A stretch of DNA of 64,000 nt from a virus (lineage: Duplodnaviria; Caudoviricetes): positions 30,212 to 94,211 of the IMG/VR virus record IMGVR_UViG_3300028833_000112; one strand, written 5' to 3'. Both the position numbers and the translations under genes were made by a program. This document shows positions 6,350-57,436 of the stretch, one piece after another. The notes beneath the pieces are model-generated. The model made no database searches and had not been told where the DNA came from. It saw only the letters and a list, made by a program, of their open reading frames with translations. Position 1 is the first letter of the stretch. Each line of letters starts with the position of its first letter.

Positions 6350-6980
6350 GCATGGAATTTTTACTCGCACTGACCTTCCCGATTTGGAGTGCGCCGCTTC
6401 TCGTTTTGCTCGGTAAAGCCGGGGCTCGCGTCTTAAAAATCTTTTGGAGGTGATTCACCTGACTGAAGAGCAAAAAGAAATTGAACGCAGATTTGAACTC
6501 GGTATCTGCCAATTCAACATGCTGATTGAGTATGAAAGAAAACACGTACCGCACGACCTCACCTTCGATGGCGACCCGACTCTGCCACAGATATTGGAAG
6601 CCGCGCGTGACGCTTTCATGGAGTTGCACGTTGATTGGCGGGCGCACATCGGCGACCCTGTGATGGACAAGCGCGAAGCCGTCAGCCGATTGCTTGTCAA
6701 ACTCGCCGCAGACATCGCAAACGGCAAAGTTGATTTATGAGGAGTGATTCATTTGGAAATTACATTCGTCGGTTCGCCCGAAGAGTGGCACGCGACCTTT
6801 GACCACTGCACGCCGAAAAAGTGTGAATCAAAATCTTTCGTTCGGAAAAATATTCTCCACGGCTACGAGTCCGTCGAAGACGACGCAATCAGGGGACGAA
6901 CTTGCGCACCGACCTTTCTCGGACGACGAATATGCCCCAAATTTCAGGCTGAGCAAAACTAATACGCTGTAAGGTTGACC

Positions 6981-7190
6981 CCTGCCGCTAATCGGCGCGG
7001 GCGGCAGGTGTGAGCCTTTAGCCGAGGCTCAAGCCATTCCCTCTATTCATTTTTCAAAGAACTCAATCGCAAGATTGACACCAGCCGCCGTTGTTCCATG
7101 ACCTCCAAATGACGGCGGTGAGTGTGAGTCTTGCAAAAGACTCAAGCAGTGGACGCGAGTGACAGTTCAGCCGAAGATGAATTGCGATTC
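6981..7190 (+). ncRNA. Cluster of stable hairpins (putative structured RNA)
   Basis: Stems 6981-7008, 7011-7031, 7063-7078 (GCAA tetraloop), 7084-7119 and 7125-7144 (GCAA tetraloop); no credible ORF. Confidence 0.55.
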
Positions 7191-29029: not shown

Positions 29030-29678
29030 CCCCGGCTGAATACATTGTCGCGAAAGACCGCTGGCGCGAACTTGCCGAGAGTGGTCGCCTTGACGAACAG
29101 CAACTGAATTTTCTGGGCGAAGTTCTCTTCAACAATCGCCCGCGGGAAATGAAGGTCGTTGACCTGAGTGAGTATCGTGAAAGGCGGCGGAGTGCATGAA
29201 ATACGTGATGATTACTTGCGCGTGTTGCGGCAAACAAGAATTTCGCGCATACAACACAAAGTATTGCTTCGAGTGCAAGAGAACGCTCCAACGCGAGAAA
29301 ATGCGCGAGTATTCAGCAAGACGCAGGGCGGAGAAGCGTAATGAAAATCATTAAGTCAGGCGAAGTCGTTGCTCAAATGCGTGACACACCTAAAGACTTC
29401 GAGGGCGGCTGCAAAGGCGGAGTTGTCTGGTTGGTCGTCGGCGATTCGGAAGTCAAACTCGCGCGCTATGAATCACCCGAACGCGCGGGCGAGGTGCTCA
29501 ATGCTCTGCATGACGCATACTTTGCGGGCAATGATGAATTCATCGTGCCTGAAGAGGAGACAAACAAATAAGCGGCAAACCCATAGGTCGCCGCAAGATT
29601 CCGAAAGTTAAAACTAAAAAAGAAACCGTAGGAATTATATAACGGCGACCTTGGGCTTGTCAAGTATGGTGAGGAACC

Positions 29679-31268
29679 ATGGCTAAGAAAAAATCTGCAA
29701 AGACTCTCGTGGTCAAGAGCGAGCACAGAAAAAATTTCGTCAAAGCTTTGAATCAGTTCAATGCTTACGGCTACTCGCGATTCAACGTCTTCAATGACTT
29801 CCTCCATCTGTCGGCTATCACGCTCGCTAACAGCAGCGACCCGTATAATTTGGCGAACGCAAAGGCAACGGTCGACGAACGCGAAGCTCAATACAAAAAC
29901 ATAATCGGCAAGTACAAGCCCGAACTCCAAAACTTGTTCGGAGAAATGCTCGGCGAAATTGTTCTTGAAATGGAAAGCTACTGCCCGAATCATTTGACTG
30001 ACGTGCTCGGAGAAATTTTCCACAGCTTGGAGTTTCACGACGAGTGGAAGGGGCAATTCTTTACCCCGCAATGTGTCAGCGATATGTGCGGCATGGTGTT
30101 GACCGATAACAATTCTTTGAACGCGGCAATCGCGGAGAAAGGTTTCATCACGGTCAACGAGCCGTGTTGCGGCAGCGGGTCAATGATGCGACGAATTCGA
30201 GGACGAGCAATGACGCTCGGCAGTCTCTTCGACGGGCTGGGCACATGGCAACTGGCAGCGGCGAACGTCGGGATTAAAACTTTGTGGTCGAGTGAACTTG
30301 ATTCATTCTGCCGATTCATTACGGCGCGCCACTTCCCCGATACCGTTCAACTTGGCGACATCAATCACATAACCGACGCACCGCACGTGGACATCATCAC
30401 GGCAAGCAGTCCGTGCCAAAATTTGTCCGTGGCGGGCAATAGGAGTGGTCTTCATGGCAACCAAAGCAAATTGTTCTTCAAAGCAGCTGAGCTTGTTCGA
30501 CAAATCCGTCCTCGATTCTTTGTATGGGAGAACGTGCCCGGCGCATTCAGTTCAAACGGCGGGAATGATTTTCGTACCGTCCTCGAAGAAATCTTGCAGG
30601 AGCCCGTTCCTCTACCTCGACACTGGAGCAATGCAGGATTGGTTGACGGTCGAAACGCTCAAGTCGGCTGGAGACTTCTCAACGCTGAACACTGGGGAGT
30701 CGCCCAACGACGTAAAAGAATCTTCCTTGTCGCAGATTTTGGAGGACGACGCGCCGGCGAAATACTCTTTGAGCCCGCGAGCGTGTCAGGGGATTCTGAG
30801 GCGGGCGAAAGCTCACAAGAAAATTTTGCCGCCCGAACTCGAAGCGATTTTAGTTGCACAGTCTACGACAACCACTGGAAAGACAGCCGAATCAAACGGT
30901 TAGGCGACGTTGCTCCGACGGTCAGCGCAATGTACGGCACCGGCGGCAACAACATTCCGCTTGTGACTTACGGCTTAGGGCGCGACGCATTCAATCAAGG
31001 ACACAATGCCAAATATATGCCAACAATTGAATATGATTTATGCCCCCCCCTCATGGCGCGTGGTGCCGCCGCCTGTGCCACGCAATCACGCGTAAGGCGG
31101 CTGACTCCAAGGGAGTGCGAAAGACTTCAAGGTTTGCCCGATTCATTTACGGCAGGCGGGTCGGACGCAAAACGTTACAAAGCACTCGGCAACGGTTTGG
31201 CTCTTCCTTGCGCCGAATACGTTCTGAGGAGAATCACAGAGATAATCCGAAAGGAGGCTGAACAATGA
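29679..31268 (+). CDS. Truncated N6-MTase-like N-terminus in frame with a C5 cytosine methyltransferase
   Basis: GQFFTP and NEPCCGSG, then from ATG 30210: SLFDGLG, SPCQ, ENV, QRRKRIF, RRLTPRECERLQGLP, YKALGN. Confidence 0.88.
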   Translation: MAKKKSAKTLVVKSEHRKNFVKALNQFNAYGYSRFNVFNDFLHLSAITLANSSDPYNLANAKATVDEREAQYKNIIGKYKPELQNLFGEMLGEIVLEMESYCPNHLTDVLGEIFHSLEFHDEWKGQFFTPQCVSDMCGMVLTDNNSLNAAIAEKGFITVNEPCCGSGSMMRRIRGRAMTLGSLFDGLGTWQLAAANVGIKTLWSSELDSFCRFITARHFPDTVQLGDINHITDAPHVDIITASSPCQNLSVAGNRSGLHGNQSKLFFKAAELVRQIRPRFFVWENVPGAFSSNGGNDFRTVLEEILQEPVPLPRHWSNAGLVDGRNAQVGWRLLNAEHWGVAQRRKRIFLVADFGGRRAGEILFEPASVSGDSEAGESSQENFAARTRSDFSCTVYDNHWKDSRIKRLGDVAPTVSAMYGTGGNNIPLVTYGLGRDAFNQGHNAKYMPTIEYDLCPPLMARGAAACATQSRVRRLTPRECERLQGLPDSFTAGGSDAKRYKALGNGLALPCAEYVLRRITEIIRKEAEQ

Positions 31269-32950
31269 GAATCAGAAAAATCCGCTGGTGGAACTATCGC
31301 GGGCTCGACGACGGAGAAATTGTCGCGGACGGAGCCGATGTGATAATCCGCGGGCAAAATGGCGTGGGCAAGACTTCAATCGCGTCAATCGTGCCGTTCG
31401 TGCTGTTCGGGAAGGATAAGGACAAAGTGCGGCGATACGAGGACGGCTTGGAGGTTCGCGACGACGGTCTGCTCCACGGTGCCGAAGTTGAATTCGACAA
31501 CGGCACAATCTTTAGGCGCGAGGTCGACGGCAAGGACGGGTTTTATTACGTCGACGGCGTGCTCATGACGATGACAACTTTTAATGCAAAGGTCGCCGAG
31601 TTCCTTAATCACGGCGGCGAGTATGTTCTGAATCCGTTTTTCTTCTGCGAGGGGAAATCGCCCAAAATTCAGCGCAACACTCTGGAAAAAATATTCGGCA
31701 CTGTAAGCGACAAAGATATTTTGAGCACATCCGAATTTGAAGAGTTGGCGCAAGAAATCGGCGGGCAATCCTTCGACGCATTCATCACGAGCACGCAGAG
31801 CCAAATCAAAAATTTGCGGGGAAAATTAATGGATATCCCGGCGCGAATTGATGAGATTGACCGACAGCTGGCGGATAATCCCTACGACGCGAAAGTTGCC
31901 GAGTCATTGCAAGCCGAGCGCGACGAGTTAGACCGCGAACGCAAAGCACTGCAGACGGCGGAGAACGAAGTCGCTAAAGAATTGTCGGCGGCAAAGATTG
32001 AGCGTGAGCGGTTGGCTGCTCCGAGCGCGGCGGCGAGTCGTTTGGCGGATTTGATTGAGGGTAAAGAGTTTTACTCGCAAAAAGTGGAAAGGCAACACGC
32101 GCGAGTAAGACAGCTCCTCCAAAAGCACCGCGAAATCAGCAAGCGTGAAGTGAGTATTTGCCCGGCGTGCGGTCAGAAGTTGTCGGAAGAAAAATTTGCC
32201 GCACTTAAAGAATCCCAGCTGACTGAAGTTGTCGCTGAGGGTAGATGTGAACGCGCCGAGGAACAAAAACTTGAACAAATTTTGCGTGACATTAACACAC
32301 AAATCGAGACGGTGAAAGAAAAACTCGCGGCGGAGAAAAATCCTGCCGAACAACTTGCCGCGCTCGACGAACGGATAAAAACTCTGGAGCAGCAGGCGGC
32401 GGATGAAAAAGTTCAGCGCAAAGAACGGCTGGCGAAATTCGACGCGGACATCAAAGAGATTGACCGTTGCATTAATGATTTGAAGTCGGCGGCGAAAGCC
32501 CAGAAACGAATCGGAGAGTTGCGCGCTGAGGAGAAGGAATTGAATCAGCGAATCGTCGACCTTGAACACCTCGTGCACTTGGCGAAGGACGCGCGCAATC
32601 GCAAAATCGAATTGACGGAGAGTCAAATCGCTGACCACTTTGAGTACGTGAAATTTAAAATGTTCAAGCTGGTCGTGTCGACAGGCGTGTTCGAGCCGAC
32701 GTGCGAGGCAATGCTCCATGGCGTGCCGTACTCGCTGTTGTCGAAGGGCGAAAAGCTCAAGGTGGTCTTGGACATCTTTCGCGCGCTGCAGAAAAAATTC
32801 AAGGTGGAGATGCCGTTGCTCATCGACGACGCGGAGAGTTATACGCGCAACAGTTTCGTTGAACAGCCAAACCAACTTTGGTTGTTCAAGGTCAGCGACG
32901 AGGAGCAGTTGGTTATCGAAGTGAAAAAGGAAGCGAGGCGTGCGGCATGA
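31265..32950 (+). CDS. SbcC/Rad50-like ATPase
   Basis: GQNGVGKT; coiled coil with CPACG hook; LSKGE signature; LLIDDAE. Confidence 0.88.
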   Translation: MRIRKIRWWNYRGLDDGEIVADGADVIIRGQNGVGKTSIASIVPFVLFGKDKDKVRRYEDGLEVRDDGLLHGAEVEFDNGTIFRREVDGKDGFYYVDGVLMTMTTFNAKVAEFLNHGGEYVLNPFFFCEGKSPKIQRNTLEKIFGTVSDKDILSTSEFEELAQEIGGQSFDAFITSTQSQIKNLRGKLMDIPARIDEIDRQLADNPYDAKVAESLQAERDELDRERKALQTAENEVAKELSAAKIERERLAAPSAAASRLADLIEGKEFYSQKVERQHARVRQLLQKHREISKREVSICPACGQKLSEEKFAALKESQLTEVVAEGRCERAEEQKLEQILRDINTQIETVKEKLAAEKNPAEQLAALDERIKTLEQQAADEKVQRKERLAKFDADIKEIDRCINDLKSAAKAQKRIGELRAEEKELNQRIVDLEHLVHLAKDARNRKIELTESQIADHFEYVKFKMFKLVVSTGVFEPTCEAMLHGVPYSLLSKGEKLKVVLDIFRALQKKFKVEMPLLIDDAESYTRNSFVEQPNQLWLFKVSDEEQLVIEVKKEARRAA

Positions 32951-41592: not shown

Positions 41593-41868
41593 ATGACTAA
41601 AAGTGAACTGATTGCGAAGGTCAGCGGCTTGACTGCTTTGAACGAGTCGCAGGCGACGAGCGCAACGAACGCGGTGTTCGGCACGATTACCAAGGAACTG
41701 CTCAAGGGGAACAAGGTGCAAATCCTCGGCTTCGGGACGTTCAGCGTGAAAATCCGCAAGGCGCGCAAGGGACGTAACCCGCGCACGGGCGAGGAAATTG
41801 AAATTCCCGCGAGCGTCAACGTCCACTTCAAGCAAAGCAAAAATATCAAGGCGGCGATGAACGAATGA
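41593..41868 (+). CDS. hup: HU family DNA-binding protein
   Basis: MTKSELI...GFGTFSV...RKGRNPRTGEEIEIPA. Confidence 0.95.
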   Translation: MTKSELIAKVSGLTALNESQATSATNAVFGTITKELLKGNKVQILGFGTFSVKIRKARKGRNPRTGEEIEIPASVNVHFKQSKNIKAAMNE

Positions 41869-50560: not shown

Positions 50561-51793
50561 ATGAAATTTGATAAAGAATATGGGCGCGTCGGGGCGAATC
50601 GCTACGGCGGCTCTTTTTTTGAAGAATTCTTGCCTGAACTTCGCGGAGCCGACGGCATAAAAATTTACAAAGAGATGAGCGATAACGACGACATGATTGG
50701 CGCGGTGCTCTTTGCGATAAAAATGTTGATTCGGCAGGCGAGCTGGACAGTTCAGCCGCAGGGCACGACCGCCGCCGATAAAAAAGCCGCAGAGTTCGTT
50801 GAATCGTGCTTGCACGATATGTCGTCGACGTGGACGGACACGCTCAGCGAAATTCTTTCCTTCCTGACCTACGGCTGGTCGGTCGTCGAAATTGTTTACA
50901 AACGGCGCATGGGTCGCAAGCGTGACCCGCGTTTGGAGAGTAAATTTGATGACGGCTATATCGGCTGGCAGAAATTGCCGATTCGCGCGCAAGAAAGTTT
51001 GTACGAGTGGGAATTTGACGGTGACGATAATCTGACCGCGTTCGTGCAAATGCCCGCGCCTGATTTTCAGATAATCCGAATCCCCGTCGAAAAAATTTTA
51101 CTGTTCCGCACCGAGAGCCGCAAAGAAAATCCCGAAGGTCGCTCAATCCTCCGCAACGCCTATAAATCTTATTACCACAAGAAACGAATCCAAGAAATTG
51201 AAGGTATTGGCATTGAACGTGACTTGGCGGGCTTCCCATTGCTCATCGCGCCCGAAGGCATGAATATTTGGGAGATGCCAGAAAAATTCGCGGAGGCTAT
51301 GACCTTCGTGCAAAATATTCGGCGGGACGCAATGGAGGGCTTCGTTTTGCCCAGCGGCTGGGAATTGAAATTGCTCTCGACAGGTGGAGCCAGACAATTT
51401 GACACCAACGCCGTGATTCAACGCTACGACCAGGCAATTGCGCGGACGGTGCTCGCCGATTTTATTTTGCTCGGCAGTCAGAACGTCGGAAGCTGGGCGT
51501 TGTCGAGTGACAAAACTCGGCTGTTCGCCATGGCAATCGGCGCATATCTGGATATTGTCACCGAGGTTTTCAATCGTCAGGCGATACCCGCGTTGATTGA
51601 CGTGAACGGAAAAGTTTTCGCCAGGATAACCGATTATCCGCGATTGGAGCACGGAGATATTGAAACGCAGGATTTGAATGCGCTGGCGACTTTCATCAAA
51701 GAAATGGTCGGAATCGGTGCGATAACTCCCGATGAAAATCTGGAAGAATATTTGCGTGAGCAAGCTTCTCTGCCGCAGAATTTGGAGGATTAA
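50561..51793 (+). CDS. Portal protein (DUF935/Mu gp29-like)
   Basis: YGWSVVEIVY, NPEGRSILRNAY, IGIERDLAG, YDQAIARTVL; first gene of the head module. Confidence 0.85.
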   Translation: MKFDKEYGRVGANRYGGSFFEEFLPELRGADGIKIYKEMSDNDDMIGAVLFAIKMLIRQASWTVQPQGTTAADKKAAEFVESCLHDMSSTWTDTLSEILSFLTYGWSVVEIVYKRRMGRKRDPRLESKFDDGYIGWQKLPIRAQESLYEWEFDGDDNLTAFVQMPAPDFQIIRIPVEKILLFRTESRKENPEGRSILRNAYKSYYHKKRIQEIEGIGIERDLAGFPLLIAPEGMNIWEMPEKFAEAMTFVQNIRRDAMEGFVLPSGWELKLLSTGGARQFDTNAVIQRYDQAIARTVLADFILLGSQNVGSWALSSDKTRLFAMAIGAYLDIVTEVFNRQAIPALIDVNGKVFARITDYPRLEHGDIETQDLNALATFIKEMVGIGAITPDENLEEYLREQASLPQNLED

Positions 51794-51828: not shown

Positions 51829-53121
51829 ATGATAGTTTTTCGGAAGGCGCGGAATCCGCAGCAGACGCTCAATGACTTGGACGCGTATTTGCGGACGGTC
51901 GGAGATAAGCCTGTGCGTTGGCTGGCACGCGAAGTGCAATCGTGGGGCGAATTCAGCTACGACGAAATTGCCGCGTTGATTGAGAACGGACAGCTGGACG
52001 CGCTGATTGATTGGCAGGAACGTTGGGCGGGCGTCGTGAATCAAACCTTGGCTCCGATGTGGACAAAGGCAATCGAGGAGGCGTCGCGCAAGGCAACCAA
52101 GGGCATGACCGTCCTTTCCGACAGCAACGATTATGTCAAGGCGTGGGTGAACAGTCACGGCGGCGAGTTAATCACTTTGCTCAGCGATGAAAGCCGCAAA
52201 GCAATTTCAAATATCCTGCTCCGTGGTCAAGGCTTGCGAATGGCACCGCGCGATATTGCAAAAGATATTCGTCCGCTGATTGGACTGACTGACAGGCAAG
52301 CTCAGGCGAACGTCAAGTACAAAGACCGCGTTTATCAGAAATATTTGGACAACGGCTTGAGTGAATCAAAGGCGCGCGAGAGGTCGGAGGCGGCGGCACT
52401 CAAGTACGCGGGCAAGCAACATCGTTATCGCGCCGAATCGATTGTGCTCACGGAAAATGCGTTCGCCTATAATCGCGGGGCGCACATGGGCGTGAGTCAA
52501 TCAATCGCGGATGGCTACATGGGACGCTGCGAAATGGTGTGGACGACTGCCGGGACAAATCGCGTGTGCGGGCGTTGCATGGAGCTCAAGGATACCGTGG
52601 TTGGCTACACTGACCAGAGCGGAGTGACAATTCCGCCGTTGCACCCGCGTTGCCGTTGCGCTATCATGTACCGCGAGGTCGGCATACCGAGAGTAATGCA
52701 GTCGAAGCCGAAGCCTGAAAGCGGACTACAAAGACCGTCAGCAAATAGAGGCGCATTTGCTCACTTGGAAGTGCCAATGCAACTGCGAGCGGTTAAGCAA
52801 ATTTGTCACAAATATGGCGTCAAAATATCTGAACTCAAAATAAAAATTCAGCGAAGGGAAGAATGGCTGACGGCAAAATACAAATATGCAGGAATGACGG
52901 ACTACTACGACATTGGGCGAATAGATTTAACTCCTCACGCATTTGCCAATGAAGAAGAACTTTTGCGGACTGTTATTCATGAAGGGTGCCATGTTAAGCA
53001 ACTGAAAAAATATGGGCGAGAATATGCACAAGAACATATAAATCGAATGGAACAAGTGGCAGAACGATACGAAAAATTATTCTTGCGAATAGTAAAAAGG
53101 AGGAAACAACATGCCTCGTAA
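51829..53121 (+). CDS. MuF-like minor head protein with a C-terminal HExxH extension
   Basis: VCGRC...PPLHPRCRC MuF motif, then an AT-rich tail with LLRTVIHEGCH. Confidence 0.8.
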   Translation: MIVFRKARNPQQTLNDLDAYLRTVGDKPVRWLAREVQSWGEFSYDEIAALIENGQLDALIDWQERWAGVVNQTLAPMWTKAIEEASRKATKGMTVLSDSNDYVKAWVNSHGGELITLLSDESRKAISNILLRGQGLRMAPRDIAKDIRPLIGLTDRQAQANVKYKDRVYQKYLDNGLSESKARERSEAAALKYAGKQHRYRAESIVLTENAFAYNRGAHMGVSQSIADGYMGRCEMVWTTAGTNRVCGRCMELKDTVVGYTDQSGVTIPPLHPRCRCAIMYREVGIPRVMQSKPKPESGLQRPSANRGAFAHLEVPMQLRAVKQICHKYGVKISELKIKIQRREEWLTAKYKYAGMTDYYDIGRIDLTPHAFANEEELLRTVIHEGCHVKQLKKYGREYAQEHINRMEQVAERYEKLFLRIVKRRKQHAS

Positions 53122-54554: not shown

Positions 54555-54938
54555 ATGAAACTCACGGGCAAGATAGCCAAGCGTGACGACGAAAAATTTC
54601 TTGTGTTCGGGTATGCGTCGATGGCGGACGTGACCGACAGCCAAGGCGACGTAATTTCAATTGAGACACTGGAGAAAGCCGCGTATAATTTTGTGCTTTA
54701 CAGCCGCATGGGCGGAGAAATGCATGAAGTCGTGGGCGTGTCGACGTTGGTTGAATCGATTGTGTTCACGAAAGAAAAACTCGCGTTGCTCGGCTTGGCA
54801 GAAGACGCATTACCGCCCGGCTGGTGGGTCGGTTTCAAAGTCCATGACACCGAGACTTGGCAGAAGATAAAGAATGGTGCTTACAACGACTTCTCCATTG
54901 GCGGGCGTGCGATAAGGGAGGCAGTTTCAAAACCGTAA
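54555..54938 (+). CDS. XkdF-like putative prohead serine protease
   Basis: LVFGYAS...DSQGD...LEKAAYNF...MH...GWWVG...IKNGAYNDFSIGG. Confidence 0.85.
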   Translation: MKLTGKIAKRDDEKFLVFGYASMADVTDSQGDVISIETLEKAAYNFVLYSRMGGEMHEVVGVSTLVESIVFTKEKLALLGLAEDALPPGWWVGFKVHDTETWQKIKNGAYNDFSIGGRAIREAVSKP

Positions 54939-55103
54939 ACGGTAAGGAGACATGCATAACGCATTGGTGAAAAATTTTTCATTCCGAAACGTGGCGGGCA
55001 AGTTTCAAAACCGTAAATGGTAAGGAGATATGTTGCGACACCTTGAGGTGCTCGGTCATGATGGCAGTGGGCTTGTCTAGTTTCAAAACCGTAAACGGTA
55101 AGG
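54924..55103 (-). CRISPR. Cas-less CRISPR mini-array: 3 repeats (last one partial), 2 spacers
   Basis: GTTTCAAAACCGTAAA(C/T)GGTAAGG at 54924, 55002 and 55080 (78-nt period); spacers 41 and 40 nt; the middle repeat reads GTCGCAACATATCTCCTTACCATTTACGGTTTTGAAAC on the minus strand. Confidence 0.85.
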
Positions 55104-55116
55104 GAGGCGGTCAGCG

Positions 55117-55800
55117 ATGAATGAGCTGAAAGAATTGGAAGTGGACGAAGTGAGCTTAGTGGACGCCGGGGCGAATCCCGAAGCGCACATCGTTTTCTTT
55201 AAACGTAAGGAGGAAAAATCTATGGCAAAGAAAGAAACGGCGGCTGAGGTCGTCAAGCAGGAAGAGTTGCAGTTGGAGGTCACAAAGACTGCGGAGCCGA
55301 CGGTTGACGCGGAGAAGGACGAACTCCAAAAGCGTGTCGCCGAACTCGAAGCACAATTGGCTGAACGTGACGCGGCAGAGAAAGCGGCAGTCGAAAAGGC
55401 GGCTCAAGAAAAATTGGCGGCGGACAACGCGGAAATTTCTGCGGCGTTCGAACGGCTCAATCAACGCTTTGAAGCATACGTGGCGAAGGCGGAGGAGTCC
55501 GAATTGCTCAAGACCGCGTCGAAGTATGAAATCCTCGGCGAGAAGGCTGAAGAACTTGCGCCCGTGCTCAAGAAGATGAAAGCGGCGGGCGTTTACGACG
55601 AGTACATCAGCAAGCTTGACCGCGAACTCGCGCTCGTGAAGAAATCGGGCACGTTCGACGAAATCGGCAAGACCGGCGCGGGCTATGCTCAGGCGTCAAT
55701 CGAAAGCATTGCAAAAAAACTCATGGAAGCTGACCCGAAACTCTCTGAACGCGCGGCAATCGATAAAGCCTTCCAGCTTCATCCTGAACTCGAATATTGA
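55117..55800 (+). CDS. Capsid scaffold-like protein
   Basis: EVSLVDAGAN N-terminus; long coiled coil; upstream of the capsid genes. Confidence 0.7.
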   Translation: MNELKELEVDEVSLVDAGANPEAHIVFFKRKEEKSMAKKETAAEVVKQEELQLEVTKTAEPTVDAEKDELQKRVAELEAQLAERDAAEKAAVEKAAQEKLAADNAEISAAFERLNQRFEAYVAKAEESELLKTASKYEILGEKAEELAPVLKKMKAAGVYDEYISKLDRELALVKKSGTFDEIGKTGAGYAQASIESIAKKLMEADPKLSERAAIDKAFQLHPELEY

Positions 55801-56014
55801 GGTGCGGCATGAACGGCGTGGAATTTGAAGTGGAAGTGACCAGCGTCAAGCAGGCGCAAGAACAATTCGCGGCGATTCGTGAGGCGTTCGGCGAGGACAC
55901 TTTCATTAAATTTACTCTCGTCGCGGGCGACAAAAGCCGTGTGCTCAAAACGCTCGACGAGTCAATAAAAAAGACCGCGGAGGAAATCGCGGCGAAACTT
56001 AGGAGGAAAGACTC

Positions 56015-56395
56015 ATGATTTACACATACTCGATGATTGACGATTCGCCGACCAGAGTGTTTGCGGCAAGTGCAGGCCTCACGGGCGCGCGCTTCACTGC
56101 CGTAACTCTCGGCGAAAATGGCGTTGCTACTTCGGCGGCGGGCGATGTTCCGATTGGAATTCTTATCGCTGAAACCGAACTGCCCGTTGTTCAGGGCGAA
56201 GAAGTCGGCGTTCAAGTCAAGGGCGGCTCGATGTGGCTGGTCGCCGAGGAAGTTAAAGCCGGAGATTTGCTCGCGGCGGGCGAAGGTGGCAAGGCTGTTA
56301 AGGCGACGTCGGGCACATTTGCTCTGGCTCAAGCACTCGAAAACGCGGCGGCGGGCGGCACTGCTCACGTGCTCATTGTCCGCTGCAAAGCTTAA
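56015..56395 (+). CDS. Head decoration/cement protein (DUF2190-like)
   Basis: Ala/Gly-rich; VKAGDLL...GKAVKA...ALENAAAG; directly upstream of the capsid gene. Confidence 0.7.
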   Translation: MIYTYSMIDDSPTRVFAASAGLTGARFTAVTLGENGVATSAAGDVPIGILIAETELPVVQGEEVGVQVKGGSMWLVAEEVKAGDLLAAGEGGKAVKATSGTFALAQALENAAAGGTAHVLIVRCKA

Positions 56396-56407
56396 GGAGG
56401 AATAATC

Positions 56408-57436
56408 ATGGAAATCAAAACTGGCATTGACGTTCACAAGCTGGAGCTCAGAAAGGCACTCGGCACTTACAAGCCGATAACGTACCTCTCCAATATCGCC
56501 GTGATGTACTTCGAGGAGCCCACATTCGCGCACAGAAGAATTTTCCCAATTTGTCCCGTCGCTGTTCCGTCGGGGCATTTTTATACATTCAGCAAAGGCG
56601 ACCTTGCGCGCGATAACGTTGGCTTGAAGCCGCCTTACGGGAAAGTTGCGCCGGCAGTCTTCGGTATCAGCAACCAATCTTACAGCTGCCAAGTTTATCA
56701 GATTATTATCGGGCTCGACCAGATTTTGACTCTGCCTTACATGCGCACGAACGCGACCGTTGACCCGCGTCGCATGCGTGTCCGCACAATCAGCGAACAG
56801 CTTGCCCATCATCAGGAATTGGACTTCGCGAAGAAATTCTTCAACGCCACGGCTTGGGATAACACTTGGACGGGCGCGGCTTCCGCTGACCCCGACAACA
56901 AGAAGTTCAAGAAATTTGATAACAGCGATGTCGACCCCGTGGTTTTCTTCGACGAGAGAATCACCGATATCCGCCGCAGTGGTCGCCGCAAACCCAACAA
57001 GCTTGCTCTCGGCATCGACACCTTCAACGCGCTCAAGAACAATCAATTCATTCTCGACCGAATCAAATACAGCGGCACGACTCAAAACCCCGCTATTGTG
57101 AATGAAAATGTTCTCGCGCAAGTTTTTGGCGTCGACGAAGTTGTTGTCCTCGACGCGACTTATAACGCCGCTGAATTCGGTGCACCTGAAAAAATGGAAT
57201 TCATTTGCGACAGCAAAGGCGCGTTGCTCCTCTATACACCTGCTGCTCCGTCAATCGACGAACCGTCTGCGGGCTATTGCTTCTCTTATCTGCTCGACAA
57301 CAATAACTACATCGGCGTTTCAACTTATGAGGGCGCGCCCGGCGAACACACAGAACTCATGGAAGGGCTTATTGCTTACGACGAGCAAATCACCGGTCAG
57401 GATTTGGCAATTTACATGACGGATTGTGTGGGATGA
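56408..57436 (+). CDS. Major capsid protein
   Basis: 342 aa; YLSNIAV.Y, IFPICPV, RKPNKLALG, RIKY; position and codon bias. Confidence 0.8.
   Translation: MEIKTGIDVHKLELRKALGTYKPITYLSNIAVMYFEEPTFAHRRIFPICPVAVPSGHFYTFSKGDLARDNVGLKPPYGKVAPAVFGISNQSYSCQVYQIIIGLDQILTLPYMRTNATVDPRRMRVRTISEQLAHHQELDFAKKFFNATAWDNTWTGAASADPDNKKFKKFDNSDVDPVVFFDERITDIRRSGRRKPNKLALGIDTFNALKNNQFILDRIKYSGTTQNPAIVNENVLAQVFGVDEVVVLDATYNAAEFGAPEKMEFICDSKGALLLYTPAAPSIDEPSAGYCFSYLLDNNNYIGVSTYEGAPGEHTELMEGLIAYDEQITGQDLAIYMTDCVG

Follow-up and report, generated by a model that had tools for sequence, protein, structure and literature searches.

A CRISPR mini-array, very probably captured from a type III-D system of the host, at the protease-scaffold junction of a rumen phage

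The window analyzed here is a stretch of 64,000 nucleotides (nt) from a virus of the Caudoviricetes (IMG/VR record IMGVR_UViG_3300028833_000112, here G000, positions 30,212 to 94,211 of that record), whose source sample was sheep rumen. Between the genes for an XkdF-type prohead protease and a scaffold-like protein it carries three direct repeats separated by two unique spacers, which a first-pass annotation had read as a CRISPR mini-array. The features of the junction are given below in positions of the window, with open reading frames (ORFs) in amino acids (aa) and with repeats and spacers placed on the strand taken for the CRISPR RNA (crRNA).

54555-54938 (plus strand): XkdF-type prohead protease ORF, 127 aa (PF14550, 5.5e-25)
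54913-54922: left copy of TAAGGGAGGC, original phage sequence and the scaffold Shine-Dalgarno sequence in the empty-site allele
54923-55108: insertion of 186 nt, absent from empty-site alleles
54924-54960 (minus strand): repeat R1, 37 nt, last in crRNA orientation; 34/37 identical to the commonest host variant, with the conserved 24 nt identical
54961-55001 (minus strand): spacer A, 41 nt; 35/41 identical to G000 7026-7066, in a baseplate wedge gene that this phage carries outside the window
55002-55039 (minus strand): repeat R2, 38 nt; 23/24 identical in the conserved part, one hairpin base being changed from C to T, and diverged in its 5' part (crRNA sense)
55040-55079 (minus strand): spacer B, 40 nt, without a match in any search
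55058-55086 (minus strand): weak promoter-like candidate (TTGAAA, 17 nt, CATCAT, TG-extended, 9/12), with its -35 element in the ...TTTTGAAAC end of R3
55080-55116 (minus strand): repeat R3, first in crRNA orientation; plus-strand 55080-55104 are the 25 nt that match the host repeat
55099-55108: right copy of TAAGGGAGGC, a hybrid of the repeat sequence TAAGG(-)AGGC and the phage Shine-Dalgarno sequence, and the working ribosome binding site (RBS) of the scaffold gene
55117-55800 (plus strand): scaffold-like protein ORF, 227 aa (phrog_17741, 1.6e-34; 152 homologues)

A repeat search of the window placed the starts of the three direct repeats at 54923, 55001 and 55079, i.e., 78 nt apart, and a 26-nt repeat pattern with up to three mismatches matched the window three times, compared to no match in 100 shuffles. 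The same pattern found no copies besides these three in the virus record of 94,211 nt from which the window comes. Both the ACCG-TAAA-CGGT hairpin and, on the minus strand, the ...GTTTTGAAAC end were present, and the spacing was as regular as in a CRISPR array, with repeats of 37 to 38 nt and unique spacers of 41 and 40 nt. Tandem Repeats Finder detected no array because the spacers are unique. Period, hairpin and the number of spacers were thus as first annotated, while the unit lengths were not: the annotation had assumed repeats of about 32 nt, and comparison with host arrays gave 37 to 38 nt for the repeats and hence 41 and 40 nt for the spacers. It had also noted the lack of cas genes in the window, and indeed Cas1 and Cas6 were absent even from the whole 94-kb record. 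The element accordingly has the make-up of a mini-array, with two spacers in a viral genome devoid of cas genes.

When one genome per prokaryote species was scanned with the 20-mer GTTTCAAAACCGTAAAYGGT, 41 loci were found, mostly arrays in metagenome-assembled genomes (MAGs) of rumen Selenomonadaceae/Selenomonadales from goat, sheep, deer, reindeer, and buffalo. Many of these loci held 4 to 20 repeat copies at a period of 74 to 82 nt, like the 78 nt of the window, and the 173 spacers extracted from the host arrays (34 to 48 nt, median 42) bracket the 41 and 40 nt of spacers A and B. The host repeat is 37 nt long, with a conserved 24-nt part (GTTTCAAAACCGTAAACGGTAAGG) followed by 13 nt that vary between arrays, the commonest variant ending in ...GGAGGCATGCACGAC. 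Low-copy matches in MAGs were mostly array ends next to leaders and not solitary units in prophages, and PHROG searches of the contexts of three loci (L013, L018, and L026) were uninformative. A regulatory or mobile repeat, considered when the 20-mer turned up in non-array contexts of another virus, was dropped as a candidate on finding true cas-linked arrays.

The genes beside the host arrays encoded Cas1 (TIGR00287, 2.4e-71 in L027; PF01867, 2.5e-80 in L039), Cas6 (PF10040 and PF19308), a TIGR03986 type III RAMP protein (334 bits) and further RAMP proteins. The extended L039 contig also carried Csx19 (TIGR03984, a type III-D family by its annotation; 85.8 bits, where the cut-off is 35), together with RAMPs of the Csx7 type, a Csx10-like protein, and a weak match to Cas10. 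Because Csx19, Csx10-like, RAMP, Cas1, and Cas6 genes adjoin the arrays, the donor CRISPR system can be assigned, on gene content, to type III-D. The first-pass annotation had taken the ...GAAAC repeat end as a sign of a class 1, Cas6-linked system and had proposed comparing the repeat with host arrays to settle the subtype; a cas6 gene does lie in the host operon beside matching arrays, and the comparison led to type III-D. We also observed an ORF of about 600 aa that recurs beside many of the host III-D arrays (L027 3525-5342, L010 799-2598, L022 2805-4610, L038 5432-7249, L021 597-2420, L041 346-2157, and L026 462-2273). The one copy searched (L027 3525-5342) had no Pfam or NCBIfam match, and the ORF may be an uncharacterised type III-D-associated gene.

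The orientation of the array was read from the same loci. Cas1 genes (homologues of 63-97% identity) pointed into the array on the strand of the repeat ending ...ACGGTTTTGAAAC in 9/9 loci, the degenerate terminal repeat sat at the distal end of the host arrays, and a conserved leader motif, GTGATATAA on the crRNA strand, lay directly before the first repeat (e.g., L028 1673, L033 759, L044 1052, L030 7226, and L042 5543). On the strength of these three features, the crRNA strand is the minus strand of the window, antisense to the late operon, as had been suspected from the repeat end. In several host loci, only the conserved 3' 21 to 24 nt are left of the first repeat.

Compared to the host repeats, R1 is identical at 34/37 and R2 at 33/38 positions, and R3 matches over 25 nt only, its remainder being phage sequence, namely the Shine-Dalgarno sequence and the spacing to the scaffold ATG. 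The three copies differ from one another and from every host variant. Within the conserved 24 nt, R1 and R3 are identical to the host repeat and R2 matches at 23/24; all three copies preserve these 3' 24 nt (in crRNA sense), with the hairpin and the tag, whereas their 5' part has drifted. The element therefore shares with the arrays of the probable donor (e.g., G002:C14 and L039/L071) the 37-nt repeat family ending in ...ACGGTTTTGAAAC, the period, and the spacer length, but differs from them in having no leader, no cas genes, a first repeat truncated into phage sequence, and two spacers only.

We then considered the site of insertion. As the annotation had reconstructed, in silico removal of 54923-55108 gives a protease ending in ...GGRAIREAVSDE with a stop codon that overlaps the scaffold ATG as ATGAATGA. 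With the insert in place, R1 supplies the last three codons and the TAA stop of the protease, which ends ...AVSKP instead of ...AVSDE, and R3 runs into the scaffold Shine-Dalgarno sequence; both points, and the two flanking copies of TAAGGGAGGC, were also as annotated. As a population check, Logan contigs of four other gut metagenomes were aligned to the region. One contig each in X3 and X7, which come from different studies, joins 54912 directly to 55099 and skips the 186 nt, with 10 letters at the joint that fit either side. The array allele was found with no differences in contigs of X3 (54966-55156) and X5 (55067-55388), and is identical in at least three studies, dating from 2019 to 2025. 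A spike in depth at 54894-55001 in the aligned runs reflected CRISPR repeats of the community and not phage copy number.

The empty site was also evident from related genes. The 12 other full-length proteases listed from the 90% identity cluster end in AVSNE or AVSDE, and AVSKP is found only in the protease of the window. In two more distant Selenomonadaceae relatives the junction is uninterrupted: in L059 the protease ends in ...AGRAVREEIENE before its stop, with the overlap ATGAATAA, and in L060 it ends in ...GGRAMREELQ with the overlap GTGA. Since relatives have overlapping junctions, the 186-nt joint occurs in two studies, and the cluster proteases share their C-termini, the overlapping, uninterrupted junction is the ancestral state, and the annotation's suggestion to look for an empty site in relatives was borne out. 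Two of the conditions that would have refuted the annotation, a repeat unlike any cas-linked array and the lack of an empty-site allele, thus did not hold. Because only this phage's protease ends in AVSKP, compared to AVSNE or AVSDE in the 12 others listed, the array allele is rare and derived, and it circulates alongside the empty site.

The host repeat contains TAAGGAGGC, which resembles the phage Shine-Dalgarno sequence TAAGGGAGGC, whereas no homology is seen at the left junction, where GGAGGC is followed by A and GTTTC; this resemblance explains the right junction only. Capture at microhomology, as first proposed for a host array fragment, is thus plausible: the host origin stood up, and the homology did so at the right junction but not at the left. 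A template switch that departed at the homology and returned 10 nt upstream would produce the 10-nt duplication. Because this duplication keeps both a protease stop (in R1) and a scaffold RBS, the insertion would be tolerated.

These data also bear on whether the element is a CRISPR array at all. On the plus strand each repeat offers AAGGAG followed by ATG, giving micro-ORFs of 23 and 16 aa (54952-55023 and 55030-55080), as a tandem duplication of an RBS cassette might; this Shine-Dalgarno and ATG motif, however, belongs to the host repeat (..AAGGAGGCATGC..), the micro-ORFs read the repeat in different frames, and the repeat is identical to that of cas-linked arrays. Nor does a chimera of metagenome assembly fit well. 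The left junction is bridged by no independent Logan contig, because the contigs break at the R1 repeat, but other studies contain the right junction, both spacers, and R2 without a single difference, and an exact polymorphism of 186 nt that comes with a 10-nt duplication is not chimera-like. We regard a non-CRISPR or chimeric origin as largely refuted and highly improbable. The element is, almost certainly in our judgment, a host-derived type III-D mini-array that was recently inserted at the protease-scaffold junction.

The scaffold homologues also point to the host. They were found in 11/262 Selenomonadaceae genomes and in MAGs named Selenomonadaceae, and the host arrays and phage-related contigs were all of ruminant gut origin. 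The host of the phage thus appears, from these occurrences, to be a rumen Selenomonadaceae bacterium, and the repeats would match the CRISPR system of the phage's own host. A tyrosine integrase gene (G000 29344-29907, minus strand; PF00589, 72 bits) lies just before the window start, between the tail module and the early region. Since an integrase is present and relatives sit in Selenomonadaceae MAGs, the phage is probably temperate. The virus record seems to be circularly permuted, beginning with tail genes and ending with head genes. An attachment role for the repeat, with integration into host arrays, was considered unlikely because the integrase lies about 38 kb away on the presumed circular map (about 56 kb on the linear one), by the early region. 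Around the protease and scaffold genes, the head module comprises the following genes.

50561-51793: portal
51829-53121: MuF-like protein
56015-56395: cement or decoration protein
56408-57436: major capsid protein

The scaffold-like ORF corresponds to the C-terminal part of longer, fused ORFs of 331 to 418 aa in Selenomonadaceae relatives (L066-L069, in G149, G024, G185, and G014), which suggests that these are protease-scaffold fusion proteins; in the present lineage the two ORFs are separate and overlapping. Isolate phages gave no blastn match to the region, single-protein locus searches of IMG/VR with the capsid and baseplate proteins found none, and a profile search for relatives returned only 39-48% identity.

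The annotation had found no spacer match in the window, which held for the window, and had suggested that both spacers be searched by BLAST. A permissive local search of the genome showed that spacer A matches G000 7026-7066 at 35/41 positions on the same strand (E = 3.7e-8; chance expectation of a 35/41 match in this genome, 1.4e-10). This site lies 23 kb upstream of the window's first base on the record, or about 16 kb downstream of the array on the presumed circular map, within the following ORF.

6693-7133 of G000 (plus strand): baseplate wedge ORF (phrog_120, PF10934/DUF2634) holding the spacer A match

The plus strand of spacer A corresponds to the sense of the baseplate wedge gene (ALVKNFSFRNVAG in the spacer compared to AWVKNFSFRNVAD in the gene), so that a crRNA from the minus strand would be complementary to the baseplate mRNA, a prerequisite of type III targeting. 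Counted along the crRNA, the mismatches fall at positions 3, 4, 21, 30, 37, and 39, two of which adjoin the 5' tag, and 4/6 are at third codon positions. Thus, one of the two phage-borne spacers matches the carrier lineage, compared to 0/173 host spacers (none beyond 16 nt), which is an enrichment.

Spacer B gave no match, including at the peptide level in six frames of the phage genome. Neither spacer had a second copy in the genome at up to three mismatches. Exact 27-29-nt cores of both spacers had 0 matches in IMG/VR, blastn of both against 50,697 phage records returned chance matches only (E >= 2), and at up to three mismatches neither occurred in the 262 Selenomonadaceae genomes. Codon-degenerate searches gave 0 matches for VKNFSFRNVA (spacer A) in viral and metagenome contigs and for EVLGHDGSGLV (spacer B) in metagenome contigs.

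Mini-arrays carried by viruses are held to exclude related viruses through the Cas machinery of the host (PMC6858448, PMC11656645). The element fits this published class by its structure, by its match to the carrier lineage, and by the way in which spacer A is oriented to the mRNA it would target, and we tentatively favor a reading in which the mini-array acts in lysogens as a weapon against related phages through the host III-D system. A fragment of a host III-D array with three repeats and two spacers would have been copied into the phage without leader or cas genes. In the lysogen, where the late operon would be silent, low-level minus-strand transcription could yield a pre-crRNA, host Cas6 would cut it 8 nt from the 3' end of each repeat, and the processed crRNAs would load into the host type III-D complex. 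The spacer A crRNA would then be antisense to the baseplate wedge mRNA of the lineage, so that late expression by a superinfecting relative would trigger type III immunity, and the carrier could be spared by the differences at 6/41 positions of its own gene, two of them beside the 5' tag.

Several findings weigh against such a guide. There is no leader: R3 abuts the conserved start codon and coding sequence of the scaffold gene, and the host motif GTGATATAA is absent. The only minus-strand promoter candidate is weak (9/12), and the array is antisense to a strongly transcribed late operon. R2, the expected source of the 5' tag for the spacer A crRNA, has the hairpin mutation and a diverged 5' part. 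The allele is rare. No perfect or better target for either spacer was found in the viral, metagenome, phage, or Selenomonadaceae collections. Finally, the two non-synonymous differences of spacer A, W to L and D to G, occur in 0/39 baseplate homologue clusters, where the corresponding residues are W/Y/F (or, in two distant clusters, A) and D/E; differences of this kind look more like decay of a spacer than the sequence of a real rival. We also observed a terminator-like hairpin with a T-run on the minus strand at 55974-55993, inside a plus-strand gene and upstream of the array in crRNA direction, which would block long antisense read-through into the array.

Much of this would equally be expected if the mini-array were a neutral passenger, i.e., a harmless, decaying, and functionless product of recent illegitimate recombination or template switching between replicating phage DNA and a host array. 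The allele's rare and derived state, the missing leader, the heterogeneous repeats (34/37, 33/38, and 25 nt) with the mutated R2 hairpin, the lack of a target for either spacer in the collections searched, and non-synonymous differences that are not natural variants all agree with it, and one would expect spacers similar to the phage lineage in a host that had met it. On the other hand, the array allele is identical in those three or more studies across 2019 to 2025, the hairpin and tag are kept in all three repeats while the 5' part drifts, and the lineage match of 1/2 spacers stands against 0/173 in the host arrays. We consider the passenger possible, though less probable than the guide, and rank it close behind because of the rarity of the allele, the mutated and heterogeneous repeats, and the lack of a real target. 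A guide function, supported by the spacer A-baseplate match and weakened by leader loss, rarity, and the absence of a perfect target, is still the most likely reading.

The plus strand is the strand of the late operon, and no terminator lies between the protease and scaffold genes, so that RNA of this strand is very probably made without an extra promoter. A near-consensus sigma-70-like promoter (TTGAGA, 17 nt, TATAAT, 11/12) at 54661-54689 on the plus strand, inside the protease gene, points at the array, the scaffold gene, and the capsid genes. When the folding of the two strands was compared, the plus-strand repeat RNA folded well (-9.7 kcal/mol, z = -3.6), with an outer GUUUC/GAGAC stem containing G-U pairs (R1 54924-54960; in the host, e.g., L029 5197-5233), whereas the crRNA-strand repeat formed the 4-bp hairpin only (-4.2 kcal/mol, z about 0). 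With the C-to-T change of R2, the plus strand has a G-U pair at this position, whereas the crRNA strand has an A-C mismatch.

In type III systems, a complementary anti-tag blocks the activation of Cas10. The late mRNA of the phage would carry the spacers in target sense, each followed by GUUUCAAA, the exact complement of the crRNA 5' tag UUUGAAAC, and could in this way be an antisense decoy: host type III complexes with the same spacers would bind the RNA as 'self' and Cas10 would not be activated, and the anti-repeats could in addition pair with host pre-crRNA. The orientation in the operon and the folding of the plus strand agree with this, as does the likeness of spacer A to a gene of the phage itself, which would be expected of an antidote to a host spacer.

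A second rumen phage adds to the comparison. G263 (IMGVR_UViG_3300028591_000234; L004/L070) carries the same CRISPR repeat outside any array, at 31870-31890 and 41690-41797, both on the minus strand. Its full-length copy, identical at 34/37 positions to an L041-type host variant, is read in frame (DEFQNRKRYEKSLN) within a radical SAM gene (phrog_9298, 4e-50), and a tandem partial pair at a gene end reads ...EEDVSKP before the stop, the same C-terminal tail as that of the window's protease. Since all G263 copies are on the sense strand of their genes, its mRNA, like that of the present phage, carries the anti-repeat, and this shared backward orientation would fit a recurrent strategy. Two phages with three sites are, however, weak statistics on orientation. 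Only two specific crRNAs would be neutralised by a decoy, while immunity may need no more than a few activated complexes; neither spacer A nor spacer B was found in a host array, and we know of no experimentally demonstrated decoy of such a kind. We therefore hold an antisense decoy to be improbable, and, by a shade more so, the particular form in which stolen spacers act as an RNA antidote, the array working backwards on abundant late mRNA to switch off the matching host III-D complexes.

Solitary repeat units are widespread in phages as RNA anti-CRISPRs (Racr) (Camara-Wilpert et al. 2023, PMC10651486). By analogy, a minus-strand RNA of the present element might titrate host Cas6 or Cas7 and suppress III-D whatever the spacers. 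All three copies are host repeats borne by a phage that keep the hairpin and the 3' handle, and G263 has solitary copies of the same repeat. Unlike a solitary unit, which usually lies close behind a promoter, however, the element has three repeats with real spacers of natural length, one of which has a meaningful match, and there is no strong promoter in sense orientation next to it. The G263 copies in turn differ from Racr in lying inside or at the end of a coding sequence, on the sense strand and in anti-repeat orientation. A repeat mimic of this type is very unlikely here.

Returning to the guide reading, the closest known systems are the mini-arrays of the SPV1/SPV2 portogloboviruses (Medvedeva et al. 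2019, PMC6858448) and the phage and prophage mini-arrays in the survey of Faure et al. 2019 (cited in PMC6858448 and PMC11656645). A leader is typically missing from phage mini-arrays, and point differences typically separate the spacer from the matching locus of its carrier (PMC6858448, PMC11656645). The element described here resembles them in its one or two spacers, its lack of cas genes, its host-system repeats, and its one spacer related to a gene of the carrier lineage with point differences at the carrier's locus; like phage mini-arrays it is leaderless and can be read as acquired by recombination with host arrays. In contrast to them, the host system is, by its gene content, a type III-D system of Negativicutes, the array lies antisense inside a late structural operon and in the last codons of a gene, and there is an exact empty-site polymorphism in natural populations. 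The heterogeneity of its repeats and the lack of a perfectly matching rival also set it apart.

The mini-array adds a well-documented case to a viral trick already known and is not a new principle. What is specific is the insertion polymorphism with its 10-nt duplication, the position in the last codons of a structural gene, and the identified III-D donor in rumen Selenomonadaceae. With an exact site, an empty-site allele, and an identified donor, it illustrates at the population level the way in which phages acquire parts of host arrays, and it extends virus-borne mini-arrays to phages of rumen Negativicutes and to type III-D. Since the array lies backwards to the late operon, an orientation that the repeat also has in a second phage, the question of guide or decoy is directly testable. 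If the guide function holds, a prophage that excludes its relatives without harming itself would be well served by transcription-dependent III-D targeting of a late gene.

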